NCBI GenBank assembly: GCA_029261055.1
Contig: JAJDCA010000014.1
Coordinates: 5,295 to 69,294 of the forward strand
Source of the DNA: Candidatus Omnitrophota bacterium
Lineage (GTDB): Bacteria > Omnitrophota > Gorgyraeia > Zapsychrales > Zapsychraceae
DNA: 64,000 nucleotides
Direction of reading: 5' to 3'
Below the pieces are notes generated by a model. It was not told the DNA's origin. It saw nothing but the letters and a program-made list of their open reading frames with translations, and did not search any database. Shown piece by piece: positions 47,927 through 60,527 of this stretch. The position numbers and the translations under genes are program-made. Positions within the stretch are counted from its first letter, which is position 1, and each line of letters begins with the position of its first letter.

Positions 47927-48286
47927 ATGCTAATGCAAAGAAATGTTATTTTTCATAATCCACGCTGTAGTAAAAGCCGGCAAACACTTCATTTTTTGGA
48001 AGAAAGAAATGTTGATATCGAGGTTGTTGAATATTTGAAGACACCACCATCTAAAGAAGAGTTGCAATTTATTTGTTCTAGATTAGATAAGAGACCTATT
48101 GAATTGATGAGAGTTAAAGAAAATCTTTTTAAGGAGTTAGGTTTGTCTATTGAAGATCCACGTTCTGATGAAGAGTGGATTGATATTTTATGTAAAAATC
48201 CGGCTCTTATTGAGCGTCCGATTGTTGTTTATAATCAAAAAGTTGCTCTAGGCCGCCCGCCCGAGGATGTGTTGGAGATAATTTAG
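47927..48286 (+). CDS. ArsC/Spx/YffB-family thioredoxin-fold protein
   Basis: 119 aa with an N-terminal CSKS (CxxS) motif of the ArsC family. Atypically located between ftsI and murE. Confidence 0.6.
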   Translation: MLMQRNVIFHNPRCSKSRQTLHFLEERNVDIEVVEYLKTPPSKEELQFICSRLDKRPIELMRVKENLFKELGLSIEDPRSDEEWIDILCKNPALIERPIVVYNQKVALGRPPEDVLEII

Positions 48287-48289
48287 AGT

Positions 48290-49744
48290 ATGTATTTGGA
48301 GGCATTATTAAAGGGTATTTATCCGCATGAATTAAATGAGGCTTATCGACAGACGGATATTGCAGGCATTTATTGTGATTCACGGCGCGTTAAGACAAAT
48401 AGTCTTTTTGTGGCGACGAAAGGATCATCGTCTGATGGGGCCAATTTTATTAATCAAGCGATTGATAATGGAGCTTCTGTAGTCGTTTCGCATAAGCCAA
48501 GAGATAAATATTGTATTGAAAAAAAAGTTTGTTATCTCACCGTTGAAGATGCGTCTCAGTTTTTACGTGATGTCGCTAAACGGTTTTATGGGCAACCTTC
48601 TGAAAAAGTCTGCACAATCGGTATTACCGGAACTAATGGTAAGACCACCGTCGCTTATCTTATTGAATCTATTTTACATCAGGCCAAAAAAATATGTGGT
48701 GTTATTGGAACGGTGAATCACCGTATTGGGTCAAGAATCTTTCCATCCAAAAATACAACGCCGGGATTTCTTGATAATCAGGAGTTTTTAGCTTCTTTAG
48801 TTGAGCAAAATATCGATTATTGCGTTATGGAGGTGTCTTCGCATGCATTAGATCAGGGGCGTGTGGATGGTATTGATTTTAAACAAGCCGTATTTACAAA
48901 TTTGTCGCATGAACATTTGGATTACCATGAAAATCATGAAAATTATTTTGAAGCCAAATCTAAACTGTTTACCGGGTTGTCTTCCACGTCTGTAGCGGCT
49001 GTTAATAATGATGATCCTTACGGGCAGAGGCTTATTCCACAAATTTCTTCCGGTATTAAGACGTATGGCATTGGCCGTCCAGCTGATATTATGGCCAAAG
49101 ATATTCAATTACATATTAACGGATCCCAGTTTCAATTATGCACCCCTGACGGGAATGTGCCTGTCCATACAGCGTTGATGGGGATGTATAATATTTATAA
49201 TATTCTCGCGGCTGTAAGTGTTTGTTTGAACGAAGGGATCCCTTTAAACGAAATTAAAGAAGGGATAGAGAAATTGTCTTGTGTGCCTGGCCGTTTGGAG
49301 AGAGTGGATTGCGGGCAGGATTTCGCTATTTTTATCGATTATGCCCACACAGAAGATGCTCTTGTAAATGTTTTGCAGGCGATTAAAGATATTTCTAAAG
49401 GCAGGCTCATTTTAGTTTTTGGATGTGGTGGTGATCGAGATAAAACAAAACGACCTTTGATGGGTCGTGTGGCCGGTCAGTTAGCAGATATATCCATTGT
49501 CACCAGCGATAATCCCCGTAATGAGGATCCACAGAGTATTATTGATCAAGTAGTAGAGGGGTTTGAAGGGGATAATTACGTTTCTATTCTAGATCGCAAA
49601 GAAGCGATACGTAAAGCTCTAGGGATGGCTCTGCAAGATGATGTTGTTCTTCTGGCTGGTAAAGGACATGAGGATTATCAAATCATTCGGGGAAAGAAAG
49701 GGGCCTTTAATGAACGGCTGGTTATTGAAGAAATATTAAAGTAA
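48290..49744 (+). CDS. murE: UDP-N-acetylmuramoyl-L-alanyl-D-glutamate--2,6-diaminopimelate ligase
   Basis: GITGTNGKTT P-loop and the DNPR motif of meso-DAP-adding MurE. Confidence 0.85.
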   Translation: MYLEALLKGIYPHELNEAYRQTDIAGIYCDSRRVKTNSLFVATKGSSSDGANFINQAIDNGASVVVSHKPRDKYCIEKKVCYLTVEDASQFLRDVAKRFYGQPSEKVCTIGITGTNGKTTVAYLIESILHQAKKICGVIGTVNHRIGSRIFPSKNTTPGFLDNQEFLASLVEQNIDYCVMEVSSHALDQGRVDGIDFKQAVFTNLSHEHLDYHENHENYFEAKSKLFTGLSSTSVAAVNNDDPYGQRLIPQISSGIKTYGIGRPADIMAKDIQLHINGSQFQLCTPDGNVPVHTALMGMYNIYNILAAVSVCLNEGIPLNEIKEGIEKLSCVPGRLERVDCGQDFAIFIDYAHTEDALVNVLQAIKDISKGRLILVFGCGGDRDKTKRPLMGRVAGQLADISIVTSDNPRNEDPQSIIDQVVEGFEGDNYVSILDRKEAIRKALGMALQDDVVLLAGKGHEDYQIIRGKKGAFNERLVIEEILK

Positions 49745-49853
49745 GTTAACCCAACTTTACAAGAATTGATGGTTTTTTGGACTAATCAATAAATGGCAAA
49801 AATTTAAAGACGTACGGAAGAGCCTGAGGCTTGGAAATGAGAAAGAGGAATAT

Positions 49854-51863
49854 ATGACGATTAATTTTAAAGAACGAGCCAATTTTATCTGGAGTATTGC
49901 TGATCTCCTGCGCGGTGATTATAAGCAGTCAGAATATGGCCGGGTGATTTTGCCTTTAACAGTTTTACGGCGGCTTGATTGCGTGCTTGATCCAACCAAA
50001 GCGAAAGTTTTAGATGCCCTTCCTAAAGTTAAGAAGTTTTCTCCAACAGCCGCAGAGGAAGTGCTGAAACGTAAAGCAAAATTGTCCTTTTATAATAAAA
50101 GTAAATTTGATTTCCAAAGGCTAGCGGCGGATCCCAATGATATTGCCGCTAATTTACGTAATTACCTGAACGGGTTTTCCAGGAATGCACGTACCATTCT
50201 GGAGCATTTTAATTTTATTGAGCATATTGAACGTTTGGATAAATCTAATCTCCTTTACAAAATTGTCAAACGCTTTGCGGAAATCGATCTTCACCCGGAT
50301 AAAGTTAAGAATATTGAAATGGGTTATATTTTTGAGGAGCTTATCAGAAAATTTGCTGAAATATCCAATGAGACAGCCGGGGAGCATTTTACACCACGGG
50401 AAGTTATTCGTCTGATGGTCAACGTTTTATTTTTAAATGACAAAGACGTTTTGACTAAAAAAGGGATTGTTAAAACCATTTATGATCCGGCCTGCGGAAC
50501 AGGCGGGATGCTTTCGACGGCAGAGGAATATTTACTTGAGTTAAACCCTGACGCAGATTTACGTGTGTTTGGTCAGGAAATTAATCCTGAAACTTATGCT
50601 GTTTGCAATTCTGATATTCTTATTAAAGGGCAGAATGCCGATCAAATTAAATTTGGCAATTCATTTACTCAAGACGGGTTAAAAGATGAAAAGTTTGACT
50701 ACATGCTAAGCAATCCTCCGTTTGGTGTCGAGTGGAAAAAGGTTGAGGCCGAAATTAGGAAAGAACATGACAAACTTGGGTTTACCGGCCGGTTCGGTGC
50801 AGGTTTGCCGCGTATTAGTGATGGTTCATTTTTGTTTTTACAGCATATGATTTCTAAAATGCGCTCTGCAAATGGCGGAGCGCGTTTAGGCATTGTTTTT
50901 AACGGTTCACCGCTTTTTTCAGGTGGTGCCGGCAGCGGCGAGAGTGAAATTCGAAGATGGATTATTGAAAACGATATGCTCGAAGCGATTATTGCTCTGC
51001 CTAATCAACTTTTTTATAACACAGGCATTGCGACGTATATTTGGATTGTGACAAATCGTAAAGAAAAAAAGCGTAAAGGAAAGATTCAATTGATCAACGC
51101 CGCGTCTTTTTTTCAGAAGATGTCGAGAAGCCTTGGCAATAAACGTAATGAAATCGGAGACAAACACATTGCAGAGATTACGCGGATTTATGGGAATTTT
51201 AAAAAAGGAGAGTTCTGCAAAATATTCGATAATAACTATTTCGGTTACACACGGGTGACCGTTGAGCGTCCGCTTAAGTTGAATTTTATGGCAATCCCAG
51301 AAAGAATCGCACGACTGGAGAATGAATCGGTATTTAAGAATTTAGCGAAATCAAAGAAAAAGGGTAATAAGGCATTAACAGAAAATGAAACAGGAGAAAA
51401 ATATCAAAAATTGATTAAAGATGCACTTGGATCCTTGAATGCCAAAAAAATATATAAAAACCGTGAGAAATTTATTGATGATTTGAAATCAGCGTTTGAG
51501 AAAAATGGGGATAATGTCAAGTCTCCGATTATCAAAATGATCATTAAAGCCCTCAGCGAGCGGGATGAAACAGCGGACGTATGTCTTGATGCCAAAGGCA
51601 ATTCCGAACCCGATTCAGAACAACGCGATTATGAAAACGTGCCTTTGCAGGATGATATTGAAAAATATTTTAAGCGGGAAGTTCTACCGCATGTTCCGGA
51701 CGCGTGGATGGATCGAAGCAAAGATAAAGTCGGATACGAAATCAATTTTACTAAGGAATTTTATAAATACAAACCTCTGCGAAGTCTTGAAGAAATTCGT
51801 AAGGATATTCTGGCTCTTGAGAAAGAGACAGAAGGGCTTTTGGAGGAAGTATTACATGGATAA
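49854..51863 (+). CDS. hsdM: Type I restriction-modification system methyltransferase subunit
   Basis: 669 aa with NPPFG (motif IV) and DPACGTGGML (motif I). Confidence 0.9.
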   Translation: MTINFKERANFIWSIADLLRGDYKQSEYGRVILPLTVLRRLDCVLDPTKAKVLDALPKVKKFSPTAAEEVLKRKAKLSFYNKSKFDFQRLAADPNDIAANLRNYLNGFSRNARTILEHFNFIEHIERLDKSNLLYKIVKRFAEIDLHPDKVKNIEMGYIFEELIRKFAEISNETAGEHFTPREVIRLMVNVLFLNDKDVLTKKGIVKTIYDPACGTGGMLSTAEEYLLELNPDADLRVFGQEINPETYAVCNSDILIKGQNADQIKFGNSFTQDGLKDEKFDYMLSNPPFGVEWKKVEAEIRKEHDKLGFTGRFGAGLPRISDGSFLFLQHMISKMRSANGGARLGIVFNGSPLFSGGAGSGESEIRRWIIENDMLEAIIALPNQLFYNTGIATYIWIVTNRKEKKRKGKIQLINAASFFQKMSRSLGNKRNEIGDKHIAEITRIYGNFKKGEFCKIFDNNYFGYTRVTVERPLKLNFMAIPERIARLENESVFKNLAKSKKKGNKALTENETGEKYQKLIKDALGSLNAKKIYKNREKFIDDLKSAFEKNGDNVKSPIIKMIIKALSERDETADVCLDAKGNSEPDSEQRDYENVPLQDDIEKYFKREVLPHVPDAWMDRSKDKVGYEINFTKEFYKYKPLRSLEEIRKDILALEKETEGLLEEVLHG

Positions 51864-52494
51864 CGGGAGCGGTAAACAACAAAATAAAAATTGGTTTGGT
51901 CAAAATTGGATAGCTTTAATTGCGCTTTTAATCTCAATTTTCTCGGTTTTTTATACCCATTTGAATTATGGCCTTCAGACTAAGTTATCTCATTTGCAGA
52001 TAAAACCAATGATAAAAACGTATTTTGATTTGCCTGTTGATAAAAATCCTATTTTTGTTGTGGCTAATGAAGGTAGTGTCCCAGCAGTATCTCTTAGCTG
52101 TGGTTATTATGTTTTCACATTTAATAAGAATCAGAAAAAAGTTGTGGTGGCAGGTAAGGCAGGACGAGTTTTTAGCCCAGGAGTGATATATAAAGAACTT
52201 TTTAACCCAACAGACTACGAATCAATGGAGTTGGTCGGAGTATCATCTGCCGAGAATACTCTTGTAATTTATCAATTTGATTTAATTTATTTTCGTAAAC
52301 AAGATATGGATGAATATTCAAGAAGGGAATATTATTTTGTAGATAATGGGCGTTTATTATCGCATTCGGAATATCGTTTGGATCCATTGTATCGTGATGT
52401 AATGTATCAGATTTCTCAGACAATTATTCCTGATTCTCAGTGGGATTCGGGTGCTTTGAGACAATATTTAGAAAATCAATCTGAATTTAAATGA
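51856..52494 (+). CDS. membrane-anchored hypothetical protein embedded between hsdM and hsdS (212 aa)
   Basis: ATG at 51856 overlaps the hsdM stop. One N-terminal transmembrane helix. No recognisable motif. Confidence 0.5.
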   Translation: MDNGSGKQQNKNWFGQNWIALIALLISIFSVFYTHLNYGLQTKLSHLQIKPMIKTYFDLPVDKNPIFVVANEGSVPAVSLSCGYYVFTFNKNQKKVVVAGKAGRVFSPGVIYKELFNPTDYESMELVGVSSAENTLVIYQFDLIYFRKQDMDEYSRREYYFVDNGRLLSHSEYRLDPLYRDVMYQISQTIIPDSQWDSGALRQYLENQSEFK

Positions 52495-52498
52495 AAGT

Positions 52499-53818
52499 AT
52501 GAATAGATATTTAGAATATAAAGATTCAGGGATAGAATGGGTTGGTAAAATTCCAAAGGATTGGGCATTGAAACGTCTCAAGTTTGTTTCTAAGATTAAT
52601 CCTTCGAGATCATTAAATATTTCAGAAAATACTCAGTGTGCCTTTATCCCAATGGCGGCGATGAATACTGATGGAAATTTTGATCAATCTGAGCGCCATC
52701 CGCTATCAAAACTCAAAAGTGGTTTTACGTATTTTGTTAAAGATGATGTTATCTTTGCAAAAATAACCCCGTGTTTTGAAAATGGTAAAGGGGCTTTGCT
52801 AGCTAATTTGGAAAGTGAAATTGGGTTTGGTTCGACAGAATTTCATGTATTACGACCTGGAAAAGGATGGACATTATCAGCATTTCTTTATTATATTACA
52901 ATATCAGGGCAATTTCGGCGAATCGGTGAAGCTTTCATGCAGGGAGTAGCTGGACAAAAGCGAGTAACAAATGATTTTGTTGAAAATTATGTTGTGGCAG
53001 TTCCTTCGGTTGATGAACAAAAAATTATTACCGATTACTTGGATTGTAAGACGGCGCAGATTGATGACTTGATCGCCAAAAAAAAACGGATGATTGAGCT
53101 GCTTAAAGAGGAGCGGATGGCTGTAATCAATCAGGCGGTGACAAAGGGGCTTGATCCAAACGTCGAGATGAAGGATTCCGGAATTGAATGGCTTGGCAAA
53201 ATTCCGAAGCATTGGAAATTAAAGAAACTTAAATATGTGGTTAGGATAAACAAAGACTCATTATCAGAAACAGTTAGAGAAAATTATGCGTTTAATTACA
53301 TTGACATTGGTAGTGTTGACTTAGAGGAAGGGTTTAATCTGGGGGAGAAAATTAATTTTGTCGATGCACCCTCAAGAGCCAGGCGGATTGTTAGCAAGGG
53401 GGATACAATCATATCCACTGTTAGGACATATTTAAAAGCAATTGCATATATCGAGAATGATGTTAGAGATATGATAGTTTCAACAGGTTTTGCAGTAGTG
53501 TGTCCTGGTAGTGAAATAGAATCGGAATTTCTTTATTATGTTTTAAGAAGTGAGAAAATTATTGATCGCATTTGTGCCATTTCTGTGGGGGTAAGTTATC
53601 CTGCGATTAATGCATCAGATTTATCAAATACAGTTATTTGGTATCCAAAAGAGAAGGAAGAGCAAAAACGAATTACTCAACAACTTGATAGGGAACTTTT
53701 AAAGTCGAAAAGGATAATTCAAAAACTGTATAGTGAAATAGAATTATTCCAAGAATACCGCACCTCACTTATTTCTGAAGTGGTGACGGGGAAGATTGAT
53801 GTTCGGGGAGGAAGTTAA
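52499..53818 (+). CDS. hsdS: Type I restriction-modification specificity subunit (two target-recognition domains)
   Basis: Duplicated architecture: GIEWVGKIPKDWALKRLKFV and GIEWLGKIPKHWKLKKLKYV start the two target-recognition domains, with the central conserved coiled region in between. Confidence 0.85.
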   Translation: MNRYLEYKDSGIEWVGKIPKDWALKRLKFVSKINPSRSLNISENTQCAFIPMAAMNTDGNFDQSERHPLSKLKSGFTYFVKDDVIFAKITPCFENGKGALLANLESEIGFGSTEFHVLRPGKGWTLSAFLYYITISGQFRRIGEAFMQGVAGQKRVTNDFVENYVVAVPSVDEQKIITDYLDCKTAQIDDLIAKKKRMIELLKEERMAVINQAVTKGLDPNVEMKDSGIEWLGKIPKHWKLKKLKYVVRINKDSLSETVRENYAFNYIDIGSVDLEEGFNLGEKINFVDAPSRARRIVSKGDTIISTVRTYLKAIAYIENDVRDMIVSTGFAVVCPGSEIESEFLYYVLRSEKIIDRICAISVGVSYPAINASDLSNTVIWYPKEKEEQKRITQQLDRELLKSKRIIQKLYSEIELFQEYRTSLISEVVTGKIDVRGGS

Positions 53819-54550
53819 ATGTTTAGCGAAAATAGATTTTATAATATTTATTGTGATGAAAGCTGTCATTTAGAGAATGATCATCAGAAAGTAATGACCC
53901 TTGGCGCACTTTGGTGTCTTAATGATGTTAAAAGGGATATGTTTTCTAAGATAAGAGAGATAAAGCGAGAACATGGCTTACCAAATCATTTTGAGATCAA
54001 ATGGACGAAGGTATCTCCTGCAAAGATAGATTTTTATATTGATATTTTAAAGACTTTTTTTGACGAATCAGATTTGCATTTTAGGGCGGTGATTATCAAA
54101 AACAAAGAGCATCTAGATCATACAAAGTTTGCAGGGCAGGATCATGACGTTTGGTACTACAAAATGTTTTTTTGTTTATTGAATGTTATTTTAGAGCCGC
54201 ATGCTTGTTATAAAATTTATCTTGATAAAAAAGACACTAGGGGTGCTGATAAAATTATCAAATTACATGATGTTTTGTGTAACCATCGATATGATTTTTC
54301 AAAAGAAATAATTCAGAATGTGCAGTCAGTTCATTCTCATGAGATAGAACTTCTTCAAGTGGCCGATCTTTTAATAGGAGCAGTTGGATATGTCAATAGA
54401 GGGATTAATACTAGCGAGGCAAAGTCTAAATTAATTTCGTACATCCGGGAACGTTCAGGGTATAGTTTATTAGCAACGACTCTTTTAAAAGAGGAAAAAA
54501 TGAATTTATTTTTTTGGGAGCCTAAGAAAGGTTTAGATAATGGCGAGTGA
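53819..54550 (+). CDS. DUF3800-family protein
   Basis: IYCDESCH near the N-terminus and LLQVADLLIGAVGY near the C-terminus match the DUF3800 pattern. Confidence 0.6.
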   Translation: MFSENRFYNIYCDESCHLENDHQKVMTLGALWCLNDVKRDMFSKIREIKREHGLPNHFEIKWTKVSPAKIDFYIDILKTFFDESDLHFRAVIIKNKEHLDHTKFAGQDHDVWYYKMFFCLLNVILEPHACYKIYLDKKDTRGADKIIKLHDVLCNHRYDFSKEIIQNVQSVHSHEIELLQVADLLIGAVGYVNRGINTSEAKSKLISYIRERSGYSLLATTLLKEEKMNLFFWEPKKGLDNGE

Positions 54551-55094
54551 AATTGATTGGCTGCCAGAGCTAGTAATTTTTGAAAGCTATGATAACAATT
54601 GGAATAAATACTTAGAAGCTTTGTATGGATTTTACAAAATTGATTTTTTGGACAATAAGCCTAAATATAAAAATAAGGATGTTGGTGTTAAAAGACTCCC
54701 TATGTATGAGGGAAAAGAATCTAATTTTTGGCATTTGATTCAAGAGAGTTACCAGACTAAGGAGGAAGAAGATCGTATTCCTGATTTGCGAAGATGTGAA
54801 AGAATACGATGGCCGAAACCAATTATCGAAAATGTAAAAAATTCAAGGGTGTTAGTTTGGGAAAATACAAGGCACAATAAGGCTGGAATTGAGAATAATG
54901 TATGTTTTTGGTTTAAAAATAAAGAATATTTAGTTGTTTTACGAAAGAGAAAAAAGTATTTCTTGCTTTGGACTGCTTATCCGGTGATAAAAGAACATAC
55001 GAAAAGAAAATTGTGGAAGGAATATGAGGCGTATAAAAAAGCTGGGGACGCCATTTCTGACGACCCCGTTACTCCTTCTACACATGGTAGATGA
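54540..55094 (+). CDS. hypothetical protein whose start overlaps the DUF3800 gene (184 aa)
   Basis: 11-nt overlap implies translational coupling. Basic and aromatic-rich, unrecognised. Confidence 0.45.
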   Translation: MASEIDWLPELVIFESYDNNWNKYLEALYGFYKIDFLDNKPKYKNKDVGVKRLPMYEGKESNFWHLIQESYQTKEEEDRIPDLRRCERIRWPKPIIENVKNSRVLVWENTRHNKAGIENNVCFWFKNKEYLVVLRKRKKYFLLWTAYPVIKEHTKRKLWKEYEAYKKAGDAISDDPVTPSTHGR

Positions 55095-55155
55095 GCTATT
55101 TAAAATATAACATACAAAATTATGAAAAACAAAGGAAAATTAGTTCAAAAAATAA

Positions 55156-55338
55156 ATGATAGAATCTAACCACAATCAAAGCGTTAAGATTGAAATAAAA
55201 ACACCTGCGGAGGAAAAGTCCTTGCAGGCTGTGGATTGTGTAAGCTGGGCCATATTCAGGAAACTGGAGTATAGGGATGATACGTATTACAATACCATCA
55301 GGGAAAAGATCATTGAAGAAAACCCTTTGTTTCCCTAA
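55156..55338 (+). pseudogene. possible C-terminal remnant of a second DUF3800-like gene
   Basis: The 60-aa ORF contains SLQAVDCVSWAIFRKLE, resembling the DUF3800 C-terminal LQ.AD....A motif. No N-terminal part is present. Confidence 0.3.
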
Positions 55339-55520
55339 GAATGATAAAGCCTCATTCGCTATTTACGAGGAACCCTGCGGAACCCCACGGATGAGGACTT
55401 ACTTATCTAGATCGACCGGGAATCCCCAGTCCTTTTTATATCTAATGTAAGTATATGCTATAGGTTGACATTTATCAACTAGAAAGCTATACCTTTTGTG
55501 TGGGTAAAAATCGAGCTAAA

Positions 55521-58500
55521 ATGAGATCAATAACCAATGAAAAAGCCTTTGAAGAATTAATTGAGCAGTGCCTTTTGAAGAGTGGCGGTTATGTAAAAGG
55601 AGATCCTGCGAAGTTCAATCGTGGATTGGCTATGGATACGGTTGTGCTTCTTCAGTTTATTCAGGCCACACAGAAAAATGTTTGGGATGAGCTTGTAAAA
55701 ATTCACGGAATAGATGCTGAACCAAAGTTTCTTTATCGACTTAATCAGGAACTTGAAACGAGAGGTATGTTAGATTGTTTGCGCAACGGAATCATTGATT
55801 ACGGTAAGAAATTTAAATTGGCCTTTTTTAAGCCAGTCAGCGGGCTTAACCCTGAAACGCAGGAATTATATGGCAAGAATGTTCTTACGGTGACAAGGCA
55901 AGTGCGTTATTCCACAAAGGATGAAAGTTCAATTGATATGCTTCTTAGCCTTAACGGTCTTCCTATGGCCACTATTGAACTTAAGAATGCTTTTACCGGA
56001 CAAAATGTTAATAATGCCAAGCAGCAATATAAATATGACAGGAATGCGCAAGAGCTTTTATTCCAATTCAAGAAGCGTGCGCTTGTCCATTTTGCGGTGG
56101 ATACGGATGAGGTTTATATGACCACCCGGCTGCAGGGAAGCAAAACACGGTATTTGCCTTTTAACCGTGGTGTCAATAAAGGGGCTGGTAATCCTATTAT
56201 TGAGGGGAAGCATAAGACCCATTATTTATGGGAGGAAGTTTTTGTTAAAGATAGTTGGATGGATATTTTGGCGAGATTTGTTCATCTTCAGATTGAAGAT
56301 TTCTTGATTGAGGGTAAAAAAGTTAAAAAGGAAAAGATGATATTCCCGCGGTACCATCAGCTGGATGTTGTAAGAAAGATTGCGAGTCATTCTTTAGCGA
56401 ATGGAGCTGGAGAAAATTATCTCATTCAGCATAGTGCCGGAAGCGGTAAAAGTAACTCTATTGCTTGGCTTTCCTATCATTTAGCCAGTCTTCATGGTAA
56501 GACGGACGAAAGAGTATTTGATTCAGTGATTGTTGTGACAGACCGGCTTGTGCTTGATCAGCAGCTTCAGGATACGATTTATCAATTTGAACATAAACGG
56601 GGCGTAGTTGAAAGAATTGATAAGGATTCTCAACAATTGGCAGATGCATTATCCGGCGGAACAAATATTATTATCACGACACTTCAGAAATTTCCGTTTG
56701 TCCTCGATAAAGTTAAAGAACTCCCTAAGCGGAATTATGCTGTTATTGTGGATGAGGCGCATAGCTCTCAGGGAGGAGAAATGGCTAGTGACCTTAAAAA
56801 AATTTTGATGCTTAGAGATGAAGAAGATGTTGAAGATGGTCTTAGGGAAATGATGCATGCTCGTGGTCCTCAATCGAATGTAAGTTATTTTGCGTTTACG
56901 GCCACACCTAAAGCAAAAACGATTGAGATGTTTGGACAAAAAGACGATGATGGTAAGCCACAACCTTTTCATCTTTATTCGATGCGGCAGGCAATTGAGG
57001 AAGGATTTATTTTAGATGTCTTGCAGAATTATATGTCCTATAAAATATTCTTTCAGTTATCCAAGAAAATTGAGGAAGACCCTGCCGTCAATAAGAAAAA
57101 AGCCGCCCAGGCGATTGCGCGATTTTTAACGCTTCATCCGCATAATCTTGCACAAAAAACAGAGATCATTATTGAACATTTTAGGCAAGTGACCATGAGA
57201 AAAATTGGAGGTAAAGCCAAGGCAATGGTGGTTACTGCTTCGCGGGAGCATGTTGTGCGTTATAAACAGGGATTTGATAGATATCTTAAGGAAAAGGGAT
57301 ATTCAGGCATTAAAGCATTAGTTGCGTTTTCTGGGAAAGTGCTATTAGATGGGATCCCACCAGAATATACAGAGGTAAAGATGAATAATTGTGGGGAAAA
57401 GGAGCTCCCTGAGAAGTTTAGCACATCTGAATATCAGTTATTGCTGGTGGCGGAAAAGTATCAAACCGGGTTTGACCAACCTTTACTGCATACAATGTAT
57501 GTCGACAAACGGCTTGATGGTGTTAAAGCTGTTCAGGCCTTGAGCCGTTTAAATAGAATGCATCCGGGAAAAGACGATACTTTTGTGCTTGATTTTGTGA
57601 ACCAGCGAGAAGATATTCTTAACGCGTTTCAACCCTATTATGAACGAACAACATTGGTCGATACAACCGACCCTAATAAATTGTACGACCTTAAAAATAA
57701 AATTGATACGTTTAAAGTCATCGACTACGGGGACGTTGATGTGTTTTCTTCTGTGTTTTTTAAAGATAAAAAATTGCACAACAAGACCGAGCACGCCCAG
57801 TTAAATGCCTTGGTCGATAAAGCTGTTGAACGCTACGAAGCGATTGAGAAAGAAGAAGACAGAGAGGATCTGGCTAATACTTGCCGAGTCTTTACTCGTT
57901 TGTATGCCTTTTTAGCACAGATTATGCCGTTTAGTGATGTTGAACTTGAGAAGTTTTACGCATACATACGATTATTTCTTAAGAAACTTCCTAAAAGAAC
58001 GAATGATGGTCGCTTTACACTCGATGATGAGGTTGCTTTGGAATATTATCGATTACAAAAAATTGCAGAGGGAAAGATTGAATTACAAAAAGGCGTAGAT
58101 GCCGGGCTTAAGCCTGTTAATGAAGCGGGGACAAAAAAAGATAAAGAAGAATATAAGCGCTTATCAGAAATTATTAAAATTATTAATGATCACTTTGGAA
58201 CCGATTTTACGGAGGCCGATAAATTATTTTTTGACCAAATTGAGGAGGAGCTTGTTTTAGATGAAAAGTTGGGACTGCAGGCTAAAAACAATACGATTGA
58301 GAATTTTAAGTATGGATTTGAGGATATTTTTGTTAGCAAGCTTGTCGATCGGATGGATCAGAACGAGGATCTTTTTAATAAGATCATGGAGGACAAAGCC
58401 TTCGCTGCTGTTGTGAAAGATTATTTGCTAAAGAAGGTGTATCAAAGATTAAATGTGCGTAGTGGGGTCGTTGAAGAAGCTGAGTCATTTTTGCGGGACT

Positions 58501-58982
58501 TGGTTTCAGATGAGGCAATAACACCTGCACAGCGTAAAACGCATGTTCGTGTTTGTTCTCTTGAAGCGATGGCGACATCGTTTCAGGAACAGCGAAGACC
58601 TGAGGTTATTGGTTGGAAAGAAATGAAGGGTGTTTTTAAGTTAAATAAAGATATGTTTATTGCTCAAGTTGTCGGCAAATCTATGGAACCGACACTTAAA
58701 GATGGCAGTTGGTGTTTATTTCGTCCGGATCAGGGGGGATCCCGAAATAATAAAATCGTTTTGGTTGAGTCGGAGTATATTACTGATTCTGAAACAATGA
58801 AGAATTATACGATTAAGCGATATTTTAGTAAAAAGACGGACGGCGAGGATGAAGACAGCTTCCGGCATACAAAAATTATATTAAAGCCGGATAATAAAGA
58901 ATTTCCGGATATTATATTACCCGAAGAAACTAGGGAAGATGAATTTCACGTTGTTGCGGAGTTTGTGAAGGTGGTGGGTTAG
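55521..58982 (+). CDS. hsdR: Type I restriction endonuclease subunit HsdR fused to a C-terminal S24 (LexA/UmuD/CI-like) peptidase domain
   Basis: SF2 helicase motifs (SAGSGKS Walker A, DEAH, FTATP). The last ~125 aa carry VVGKSMEPTLKDGSWCLF (catalytic Ser motif), YTIKRYF (catalytic Lys) and LKPDNKEFPDIIL. Confidence 0.8.
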   Translation: MRSITNEKAFEELIEQCLLKSGGYVKGDPAKFNRGLAMDTVVLLQFIQATQKNVWDELVKIHGIDAEPKFLYRLNQELETRGMLDCLRNGIIDYGKKFKLAFFKPVSGLNPETQELYGKNVLTVTRQVRYSTKDESSIDMLLSLNGLPMATIELKNAFTGQNVNNAKQQYKYDRNAQELLFQFKKRALVHFAVDTDEVYMTTRLQGSKTRYLPFNRGVNKGAGNPIIEGKHKTHYLWEEVFVKDSWMDILARFVHLQIEDFLIEGKKVKKEKMIFPRYHQLDVVRKIASHSLANGAGENYLIQHSAGSGKSNSIAWLSYHLASLHGKTDERVFDSVIVVTDRLVLDQQLQDTIYQFEHKRGVVERIDKDSQQLADALSGGTNIIITTLQKFPFVLDKVKELPKRNYAVIVDEAHSSQGGEMASDLKKILMLRDEEDVEDGLREMMHARGPQSNVSYFAFTATPKAKTIEMFGQKDDDGKPQPFHLYSMRQAIEEGFILDVLQNYMSYKIFFQLSKKIEEDPAVNKKKAAQAIARFLTLHPHNLAQKTEIIIEHFRQVTMRKIGGKAKAMVVTASREHVVRYKQGFDRYLKEKGYSGIKALVAFSGKVLLDGIPPEYTEVKMNNCGEKELPEKFSTSEYQLLLVAEKYQTGFDQPLLHTMYVDKRLDGVKAVQALSRLNRMHPGKDDTFVLDFVNQREDILNAFQPYYERTTLVDTTDPNKLYDLKNKIDTFKVIDYGDVDVFSSVFFKDKKLHNKTEHAQLNALVDKAVERYEAIEKEEDREDLANTCRVFTRLYAFLAQIMPFSDVELEKFYAYIRLFLKKLPKRTNDGRFTLDDEVALEYYRLQKIAEGKIELQKGVDAGLKPVNEAGTKKDKEEYKRLSEIIKIINDHFGTDFTEADKLFFDQIEEELVLDEKLGLQAKNNTIENFKYGFEDIFVSKLVDRMDQNEDLFNKIMEDKAFAAVVKDYLLKKVYQRLNVRSGVVEEAESFLRDLVSDEAITPAQRKTHVRVCSLEAMATSFQEQRRPEVIGWKEMKGVFKLNKDMFIAQVVGKSMEPTLKDGSWCLFRPDQGGSRNNKIVLVESEYITDSETMKNYTIKRYFSKKTDGEDEDSFRHTKIILKPDNKEFPDIILPEETREDEFHVVAEFVKVVG

Positions 58983-59159
58983 AAATGATATATGACTCGA
59001 ATTGATAACCAAACAAGTTCGGCATTTTTCTAGATAGGGACAAATTGTCCCCAGATAGAAATGCCAGAAAAGAAACCAAAAAAGAGTTGGCAGAAGCGTT
59101 GTTTCGAAACAGAATTTTGTAGATAAAGATGATCAATTAGAACTGGAAAATCAAAAATA

Positions 59160-60527
59160 ATGATACACGCACACATTAATGACATTGTAAAATGCACTAA
59201 AGGGAAGCTTGTTAAGGGGAATGAGGAGGTCCAGGTTAGAGGTGTATCCATTGATTCGCGGACTGTAAAGAAGGGGAACCTTTTTATTGCGATCAAAGGA
59301 GTGAACTTTGACGGTCATCGGTTTGTTGCGCAAGCGATTAAAAAAGGGGCGGCGGCGATTATTGTTTCAAAGCGAAAGGTCGTGCCTTGTGACGTTCCCA
59401 CTATTTTGGTCAATGATACAACGCAAGCTTTGGGTGAAGTGGCGCGATTTCATCGGTGTCGGTTTTCGATTCCGCTTATTGCTATTACCGGGAGTACTGG
59501 TAAAACCACCACAAAGGATATGATTGCGGCGGTCCTTAAAGTTAAGTTTAAAGTATTAAAGAATATCAAAACAGAAAATAATCAGTTCGGGGTTCCGTTA
59601 ACGCTTCTGAAGCTGAATGCCTCTTATGATGTGGTTGTGTTGGAATTAGGGACGAACCAGCCGGGCGATATTCCGTGGCTTGCCTATGTTGCCCAGCCCA
59701 CCGTGGCTGTTTTTACAAATATCGGGGAATCACATCTTCAAGGGCTCAAGACGCCGCAGGGGGTGTTTCGTGAGAAATATCAGTTAATTAAGCATACGGC
59801 TGAAGATGGTACGGTAATTTTTAATGGCGATGACATTTATTTAAAAACTATTACAAATAAAAAATTATCGCAGACAAAAATAACGTTTAGTATTCAAGAA
59901 AAATCTGATTACCAGGCTATGAAAATCAAAAAGAGCGGTAATTATAAGTTATGTTTTCAAACGTACCGGAATATTTTTTCTATAGTCAGTCCGGCTGAGC
60001 ATAATATTTATAATGCATTAGCCGCAATGTGTTGTGGCCGGTTCTTTAAAATTAGTTTTGATGATATTAAGGGTAGGATTTCTAGATTTAAGGGGGCTGA
60101 TGGGCGTCAAATTGTTAAAAAGTGTAAGAATTTTTGGTTGATTGATGATACGTACAATTCTAATCCTGTATCTTTTAAAAGTGCTTTAAAGACCTTGAGT
60201 TCTTTTGAAACAAAAGGAAGGAAAATTTTAGTGTTTGGAGATATGATGGAATTAGGTTCGCAAGCGCAGGATTTACATCAGCGGATGGGAAAATTGATTA
60301 GACAGTCAAGCATTGATGCTATTTTTACATTTGGTCAATATTCTGATCAGATAACTAAAGAAATTACAAAAAATTCAAAGGCTATGCAAGCAAGGCATTG
60401 TAAGACTCAAAACAAATTGCAGCAGCATTTACAGCATTTTTGTCAAAAGGGTGATGTTATCCTTATTAAAGGTTCCCGCAGCATGAAAATGGAAAGGGTT
60501 GTTGATTTTTTATGTTCTATTACTTAG
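59160..60527 (+). CDS. murF: UDP-N-acetylmuramoyl-tripeptide--D-alanyl-D-alanine ligase
   Basis: ITGSTGKTTTK P-loop and Mur ligase domain order. Confidence 0.85.
   Translation: MIHAHINDIVKCTKGKLVKGNEEVQVRGVSIDSRTVKKGNLFIAIKGVNFDGHRFVAQAIKKGAAAIIVSKRKVVPCDVPTILVNDTTQALGEVARFHRCRFSIPLIAITGSTGKTTTKDMIAAVLKVKFKVLKNIKTENNQFGVPLTLLKLNASYDVVVLELGTNQPGDIPWLAYVAQPTVAVFTNIGESHLQGLKTPQGVFREKYQLIKHTAEDGTVIFNGDDIYLKTITNKKLSQTKITFSIQEKSDYQAMKIKKSGNYKLCFQTYRNIFSIVSPAEHNIYNALAAMCCGRFFKISFDDIKGRISRFKGADGRQIVKKCKNFWLIDDTYNSNPVSFKSALKTLSSFETKGRKILVFGDMMELGSQAQDLHQRMGKLIRQSSIDAIFTFGQYSDQITKEITKNSKAMQARHCKTQNKLQQHLQHFCQKGDVILIKGSRSMKMERVVDFLCSIT

Follow-up and report, generated by a model that had tools for sequence, protein, structure and literature searches.

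A candidate defence gene at an hsdM-hsdS junction: ORF212 encodes a predicted single-pass membrane protein with an immunoglobulin-like domain

What is a small membrane-protein gene doing between the methyltransferase and specificity genes of a Type I restriction-modification (R-M) operon? The question is raised by a stretch of 64,000 nucleotides from a Candidatus Omnitrophota bacterium (contig JAJDCA010000014.1, positions 5,295 to 69,294; the window from here on), in which an open reading frame (ORF) encoding 212 amino acids (aa), which we call ORF212, sits between hsdM and hsdS. Genes nested in Type I R-M, bacteriophage exclusion (BREX) and DISARM (defence island system associated with R-M) operons are enriched for defence functions, and more than half of them are unexplained (bioRxiv 10.1101/2024.01.29.577857). 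Such genes in restriction and BREX operons have been a productive source of new phage-defence systems, and ORF212 belongs to the unexplained part. We consider ORF212, itself nested in a defence system, a plausible candidate for a phage-defence gene. The gene itself, its predicted protein and its family come first below, followed by the readings that they allow. These are the features from which the argument starts:

49854-51863, plus strand: hsdM, Type I methyltransferase subunit, 669 aa (Pfam HsdM_N 7e-29, N6_Mtase 2e-63)
51842-51847, plus strand: Shine-Dalgarno sequence GGAGGA for ORF212, from direct reading, inside the hsdM coding sequence and with the ATG 8 nt downstream
51856-52494, plus strand: ORF212, 212 aa, predicted single-pass membrane protein with an immunoglobulin-like (Ig-like) beta-sandwich, member of an uncharacterised family
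51907-51996, plus strand: predicted transmembrane (TM) helix (residues 18-36) and juxtamembrane helix to residue 47, from hydropathy and the AlphaFold helix 18-47
52003-52359, plus strand: predicted Ig-like (E-set) beta-sandwich, residues ~50-168, with P51, N71, R147, D150, F161 and the motif YFRxxDM
52364-52488, plus strand: predicted C-terminal helical region, residues 170-211, with the last ~20 at low confidence (AlphaFold)

The start codon of ORF212 lies within ATGGATAA, where the gene overlaps hsdM (stop codon 51861-51863) by 8 nt in a different frame. An earlier note on this DNA had already placed the start inside the last hsdM codons, and it gave the distance to hsdS as 5 nt; from the last base of the ORF212 TGA (52494) to the hsdS ATG (52499) we count a gap of 4 nt. 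A first homolog search with ORF212 found proteins at 66, 64 and 47% identity. The ratio of nonsynonymous to synonymous substitution rates (dN/dS) was 0.19 between the window gene and the 66% homolog (on contig L001), 0.20 between the family members of L001 and L005 (dS 0.54, unsaturated) and 0.29 between those of L004 and L016 (dS 0.46, unsaturated). The ORF list of the window also contains a longer in-frame ORF from 51565. We rejected this start because in L001 the frame is closed immediately upstream and the maximal ORF begins at the equivalent ATG; the N-termini of the homologs align at the 51856 ATG. The HsdM proteins of the window (669 aa) and of L001 (668 aa) stop at the same residue, with 668 positions aligned at 79% amino acid identity, and therefore hsdM does not extend through ORF212. 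The earlier note had allowed for such an extension, and a read-through from hsdM is refuted by the conserved hsdM end, the homologs and the dN/dS values. ORF212 is a genuine gene under purifying selection.

The protein has one hydrophobic segment only, at residues 18-36 (Kyte-Doolittle mean 2.05 over 19 residues), which agrees with the single N-terminal TM helix that had been noticed before. An AlphaFold model from a 30-sequence alignment reached a mean predicted local distance difference test (pLDDT) score of 81, with values above 90 over most of residues 50-190, while an earlier model from 4 sequences (pLDDT 53) was unusable. In the model, a long helix at 18-47 (TM segment plus stalk) is followed by eight or nine strands (53-168) and C-terminal helices. 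The strands form the two-sheet Greek-key sandwich of ~100-120 residues that defines Ig-like or E-set domains, and on this model ORF212 is a bitopic membrane protein with an Ig-like domain. Nothing in it suggests an enzyme. The structural neighbours were CsgC, RbmA, TRAP-alpha, the arrestin N-lobe and CARDB, and a fold search of BFVD with ORF212 returned uncharacterised viral proteins only. The top Foldseek hits were an archaeal type IV pilin and Kir channels, both with a helix-then-sandwich layout, at template-modelling scores (TM-scores) of only 0.25-0.38.

We rejected both of these top-ranked candidates. For the archaeal pilin, the best Foldseek match (8fk7) had TM-scores of 0.25-0.34, and the family lacks the class III signal peptide of a type IV or archaeal pilin, with its conserved Gly/Ala at -1: the columns that precede the TM helix vary (R, K or S at position 15 in relatives), and only N17/W18 are semi-conserved. 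Inward-rectifier K+ channels (Kir and KirBac) have two TM helices on either side of a pore helix with a T-x-G-Y/F-G selectivity filter, an arrangement that ORF212 lacks.

Scans of ORF212 against Pfam, NCBIfam, PADLOC and PHROGs found nothing significant, and the lone PADLOC match, to REase_II, was not significant either (E 0.012 over 30 residues). None of 145 published PDC candidates matched, and searches of PDB sequences and profiles with the 4-sequence and 51-sequence profiles gave noise only. An exhaustive HMMER search with the 4-sequence profile returned 160 cluster representatives at E <= 1e-3, with 79 at E <= 1e-10. A word-indexed homolog search returned just 4, 36 and 9 proteins; it strongly under-reports the family, and its limits constrained the sequences usable for structure prediction and for context look-ups. 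The ORF212 family is sizeable and undescribed, with ~160 sequence clusters, and in the members scanned no Pfam or NCBIfam match covered the conserved core. The profile and structure searches that the earlier note had suggested recovered a family and an Ig-like fold, and no match to a known family.

Members are typically 200-260 aa long. A short N-terminal tail, in which Lys and Arg are often abundant, leads into a single TM helix and the motif LAHLHIxP; ~140 core residues and a helical tail come after these. The residues P51, N71, R147, D150, F161 and H48 and the motif [YF][YF]RxxDM are invariant or nearly so. We assigned architecture classes by running a hidden Markov model of the core domain over 184 retrieved proteins. 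One TM helix is present in 142/184 (~77%), two or three are present in 8/184, and 19/184 have an extra C-terminal domain of at least 120 aa; the remainder are fragments or have N-termini lacking a TM helix. There are cases where an enzyme domain stands in place of the TM helix. In P0113 it is a PNP_UDP_1 domain, like that of MTA/SAH nucleosidases (Pfam 5.7e-19, and found by NCBIfam too). In P0129 it is an HNH domain that Pfam missed, which matches the solved structures of the HNH endonuclease 9om4 (3e-9) and also the Cap5-type HNH-SAVED effectors of antiphage signalling systems that are based on cyclic oligonucleotides (CBASS; 8ysq 4e-4, 7rwk 2e-3). The two proteins match the full core profile (1e-26 and 8e-25). 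Both also share a second, beta-rich C-terminal domain, and in P0011 and P0120 the core domain is followed by TPR arrays.

The TM helix has a pattern of its own. Across 51 diverse members, positions 20, 23, 27, 30 and 34 are nearly always Ser, Ala or Gly, with Ile, Leu or Val between them, and the 3-4 spacing of this stripe runs on into the stalk at Q37, L44 and H48. A small-xxx-small motif at 23/27 is present in 45/51 and in 28/30 sequences. A stripe of small residues is the signature of a helix-helix packing face, from which we infer that ORF212 TM helices would self-associate.

To see what company the family keeps, we read 15 independent genomic contexts, some of which bear more than one mark. 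The gene lies in an R-M operon in 3/15 (the window, the L001 group and L005), near a tyrosine integrase in 4/15 (the L001 group, L013, L024/25 and L032), next to a transposase or insertion sequence (IS) element in 2/15 (L004 and L021) and next to toxin-antitoxin pairs (HigB/HigA-like, ParE, Phd, PIN) in 2/15 (L007-9 and L021). In 1/15 (L013) it sits in an island with HEPN_RiboL-PSP, RelA_SpoT and DUF4062. Several contexts consist of ordinary metabolic genes or hypotheticals (L010, L012/L018, L014, L016, L027 and L034), with a weak HEPN match near the family member in L016. The named hosts of family members are two: a Sedimentisphaerales and a Thermodesulfobacteriota metagenome-assembled genome. 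Outside the operon lineage of the window, hsd genes adjoin the family member in 0/12 contexts, and an all-against-all comparison of neighbours across the loci found no recurrent partner except integrases. The family is thus normally one of stand-alone genes, often in mobile or variable regions, and only a single operon lineage has its member in the hsdM-hsdS slot. The earlier note had asked whether the ORF and its position recur elsewhere; they do, in L001-L003/L015 and in L005, within that one inherited lineage. In one distant clade, a DUF6650 protein directly follows the family member on two contigs (L032, 6667-7248; L033, 712-1293), and it could be a clade-specific partner.

The reading that we favour, tentatively, is that ORF212 is a self-contained, membrane-acting defence effector, analogous and not homologous to Cap15 and OptE. 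Two observations favour it: the swapping of N-terminal modules on one core, and the packing stripe in the TM helix. A TM helix that is exchanged for a Cap5-type HNH or a PNP nucleosidase follows the pattern of immune effectors, in which a constant sensing domain is joined to alternative killing modules. The lack of a conserved partner gene fits a single-gene module. As supporting context, three loci of distinct sequence have ORF212 within a Type I R-M operon and in the orientation of its genes, this operon also carries the published candidate PDC-M04, related HsdM operons have other cargo in these slots, and integrases, transposases or toxin-antitoxin pairs lie near several family members. One Type I R-M operon lineage captured the gene at its hsdM-hsdS junction, and on this reading translational coupling to both neighbours would ensure that the protein is made whenever the methyltransferase is made. 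The beta-sandwich would be a sensing or oligomerising module and the TM helix the killing module. Upon a trigger, the TM helices would associate through the face lined with small residues and impair the inner membrane, and this damage would serve as an abortive-infection back-up to restriction. The defence role, the membrane disruption and the trigger are all things that we infer. A bolder version, which we hold to be unlikely, makes the ORF212 core a new sensor or oligomerisation domain of conflict systems with swappable killing modules (TM, multi-TM, HNH, PNP). The family would then be one of single-gene abortive-infection systems, and ORF212 would guard HsdM/HsdS and fire when the restriction enzyme is neutralised, which is the logic of PrrC with a membrane effector.

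Several observations weigh against a membrane-acting effector. The generic Ig-like fold of ORF212 carries no catalytic or ligand-binding signature, and no PADLOC or DefenseFinder-type model matches the protein. The enzyme fusions are 2/184 members, both in a distant two-domain subfamily. Residue 48 of the window protein (51997-51999), in the LAHLHIxP motif directly past the membrane, is Gln, where 42/51 relatives have His, as do the two closest homologs. In several contexts the relatives are flanked by housekeeping genes, and searches of IMG/VR contigs, GenBank phages and PLSDB plasmids yielded no relatives. The remaining points concern topology. Among 99 single-TM members, the N-terminal flank of the helix carries more Lys and Arg than the C-terminal flank (3.13 vs 2.35; 55 vs 19 proteins; p = 4e-5), and by the positive-inside rule the family leans towards an N-in/C-out topology. 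Some two-domain relatives have signal-peptide or lipobox-like N-termini (P0149 with '..VTSC', and P0079), which would put the sandwich outside the cytoplasm in those relatives. The sandwich may be periplasmic in many members, and a periplasmic domain would be better suited to blocking phage entry.

Blocking of entry is what the strongest alternative proposes. ORF212 would be a protein of the superinfection-exclusion type, inserted N-in/C-out, whose periplasmic Ig-like domain hinders phage DNA injection or a receptor or channel used by phages; it would add a layer ahead of restriction and would not kill the cell. We regard this as a possibility, if a somewhat doubtful one. The charge bias of the 99 members and the signal-like starts of P0149 and P0079 argue for it, as do the top structural neighbours, many of which are Ig-like proteins located outside the cytoplasm (CsgC, RbmA, TRAP-alpha, CARDB, the archaeal pilin), and the embedding in a defence operon suits a blocker too. 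However, the two flanks of the window protein carry equal charge (2:2), and its closest relatives show no common pattern. Neither the HNH nor the PNP fusion has a signal, so in those two the core sandwich should be cytoplasmic. Known exclusion proteins are mostly prophage-encoded, whereas no relatives of this family turned up in viral contigs or phage genomes, and a passive blocker would need no conserved helix-packing stripe.

It is also conceivable, though we consider it doubtful, that ORF212 has no part in defence: an envelope protein of unrelated function, captured by chance and maintained for reasons unconnected with phages. The generic fold and the lack of a match to any defence model are consistent with such cargo, and so are those relatives that lie among metabolic genes and bear neither mobile nor defence marks (L010, L012/L018, L027). 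Against it stand the purifying selection within a tightly coupled defence operon across ~35% divergence, the Cap5-type HNH and PNP effector domains on relatives, and the recurrence of the family beside integrases, IS elements and toxin-antitoxin genes.

The next alternative depends on the rest of the operon, whose other genes are:

52499-53818, plus strand: hsdS, specificity subunit (Pfam Methylase_S, E 5e-22)
53819-54550, plus strand: DUF3800 protein, the PADLOC candidate PDC-M04A (Pfam DUF3800 1.5e-16; PDC-M04A 2e-91)
54540-55094, plus strand: PDC-M04B partner protein (PADLOC PDC-M04B 9e-60)
55500-58982, plus strand: hsdR with a C-terminal LexA-like S24 peptidase domain (Pfam HSDR_N, SWI2_SNF2, ResIII, T1R_D3-like, Peptidase_S24)

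Two further sequence-distinct lineages of this operon (63-66% ORF212 identity) keep ORF212 in the slot between hsdM and hsdS. In the first (P0002; contigs L001-L003 and L015) the order is hsdM-ORF-hsdS-(200 aa)-(30 aa)-DUF3800-PDC-M04B-hsdR(S24), and here the chromosomal surroundings differ: the operon is part of an integrase island that adjoins eno and divIC. In the second (P0003; L005) hsdS follows the family member and overlaps it. The junction between hsdM and the ORF is conserved as ATGGrTAA, and the junction between the ORF and hsdS is an ATGA overlap in L001 and L005 and a 4-nt gap in the window. Protein identity between the window and L001 is 79% for hsdM, 72% for hsdR, 68% for DUF3800, 61% for M04B and 40% for hsdS. 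From the conserved slot and junctions and the orthologous operon genes, it follows that ORF212 was co-inherited with the operon through ~35% protein divergence, and coupling to both neighbours is predicted.

Such close co-inheritance could mean that ORF212 is an accessory subunit of the R-M enzyme, which tethers or regulates M2S (or R2M2S) at the inner membrane or tunes HsdS production by coupling. The tight overlaps with hsdM and hsdS persist in three lineages whose ORF212 proteins are up to 37% different, and the rest of the operon was inherited along with it (hsdM 79%, hsdR 72% identity). We nevertheless think it improbable, because adjacent hsd genes occur in 0/12 of the other contexts, no partner recurs, and there are close HsdM relatives in which hsdM and hsdS overlap directly. 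Relatives of this HsdM subfamily (~51% identity) are found on plasmids of Halorussus (M-S-R, directly overlapping), Francisella (M-[458-aa protein]-S-[PDDEXK]) and Salipiger (M-S-[3 genes]-R-Abi, where Abi stands for abortive infection). They show that both the M-S and the S-R junction of this subfamily accommodate cargo, as has been described in published work on 'guilt by embedding' (bioRxiv 10.1101/2024.01.29.577857). The suggestion of the earlier note that genes in this slot are typically defence-related is a reasonable prior in view of these cargo slots and the HNH and PNP fusions of relatives, and it stands as a prior, not as a result.

That ORF212 is no separate gene, and instead a fortuitous ORF or a continuation of hsdM at its C-terminus, has practically no chance of being right: its sole point is the 8-nt overlap, and against it are the different frame and conserved hsdM stop, ~160 homologous clusters that are mostly stand-alone genes, a dN/dS of ~0.2 and a confident predicted fold.

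The host operon has some features in its own right. Its genes are all co-oriented. The DUF3800 gene and its partner (53819-55094) form PDC-M04, nested between hsdS and hsdR, which is a published, untested candidate from 'guilt by embedding' (bioRxiv 10.1101/2024.01.29.577857). With PDC-M04 nested there besides ORF212, the operon holds two independent embedded cargos. Two extra genes between hsdS and DUF3800 in L001 (8578-9285; 200 aa and 30 aa, with no Pfam match) are lacking in the window, so cargo content varies even inside the operon lineage.

A 400-nt spacer precedes hsdR. This spacer (55095-55499) contains a 60-aa ORF at 55156-55338, which is also in the public gene call and has a weak match to phrog_9243 (E 0.022). 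We rejected it as a DUF3800 remnant because it has no similarity to the DUF3800 gene; the spacer might be what is left of a gene, or it might be regulatory. For hsdR itself the start is either GTG 55500 or ATG 55521, and the public gene call takes ATG 55521 (1153 aa). Its S24 domain is of the LexA/UmuD type (residues 1043-1155, window 58626-58964, Pfam 2.8e-08), and by eye the dyad is intact, with Ser in GKSMEP and Lys in IKRY. The same hsdR-S24 fusion is present in the orthologous operon (L001, 10595-14032). The fusion suggests that HsdR might cleave itself and restriction be alleviated in this way, possibly in connection with DNA damage.

The R-M and PDC-M04 genes make up a co-oriented island of 9.4 kb (49745-59159) between murE (48290-49744) and murF (59160-60527) of the division and cell-wall (dcw) gene cluster. 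We found no convincing direct repeats flanking the island and no integrase there. In the same cluster, an ArsC/Spx-family gene (47927-48286) lies between ftsI and murE, which is an unusual position.

Should ORF212 prove to be a defence effector, it would add a new effector or sensor domain to the bacterial immune repertoire, and Type I restriction operons would have a second case, besides PrrC, of a built-in back-up weapon. Should it turn out to play no part in defence, it would warn against trusting guilt by embedding on its own. ORF212 is one of many embedded candidates, and what makes it a testable lead is a family of ~160 clusters with a confident fold, in which the TM helix is sometimes exchanged for enzyme domains of immune effectors.

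How does ORF212 compare with known systems? At the level of fold it resembles Ig-like and E-set domains such as ApaG, CsgC, CARDB, the Kir cytoplasmic domain and the AGS-C domain of Pycsar PycC, with an identity to ORF212 of only 5-15%. This likeness is one of fold only and allows no functional transfer. ORF212 is like class III holins (phage T4 T) and exclusion proteins with a single TM helix in size (~210-220 aa) and in layout, where a short N-terminal tail and the TM helix precede a large globular domain; however, no sequence match or listed structural match between them was found, and no viral homologs were found. Superinfection-exclusion proteins of prophages are encoded by phages or prophages and have a demonstrated block of DNA entry, whereas no relatives of ORF212 were found in IMG/VR or GenBank phages.

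By position, ORF212 is like PrrC, RloC, TgvAB and the PDC candidates of PADLOC, which are same-strand genes nested in a Type I R-M operon. TgvAB is a validated case of independent defence from inside a Type I R-M cluster (PMC11411939). Unlike genes of the PrrC, RloC or TgvAB type, ORF212 has no ATPase, nuclease or GmrSD domain, is predicted to be membrane-bound and matches no PDC model. PrrC is found almost exclusively embedded (bioRxiv 10.1101/2024.01.29.577857), whereas most members of the ORF212 family are not. We rejected a PrrC-type anticodon nuclease, which has an ABC-ATPase-like N-terminal domain and a C-terminal anticodon nuclease domain, whereas the ORF212 model is a TM helix plus a beta-sandwich. 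The earlier note had named anticodon nucleases and Abi proteins as examples of accessory genes in this slot, and ORF212 has no resemblance to an anticodon nuclease or to any Abi protein that is known.

The S-2TM-beta proteins (Cap15 of CBASS and OptE of Panoptes) differ from ORF212 in having a two-pass N-terminal TM element, where ORF212 has the one segment at 18-36. No CD-NTase/SMODS or mCpol synthase is present in the ORF212 operon, and none recurs near the relatives. The active state of Cap15 and OptE is an oligomer that disrupts the inner membrane (PMC12657218). Like ORF212, these proteins combine an N-terminal TM element with a small, soluble, beta-rich domain and are encoded in defence loci, and the swapping of effectors that they exhibit (TM, HNH, nucleosidase) is also seen around the ORF212 core.

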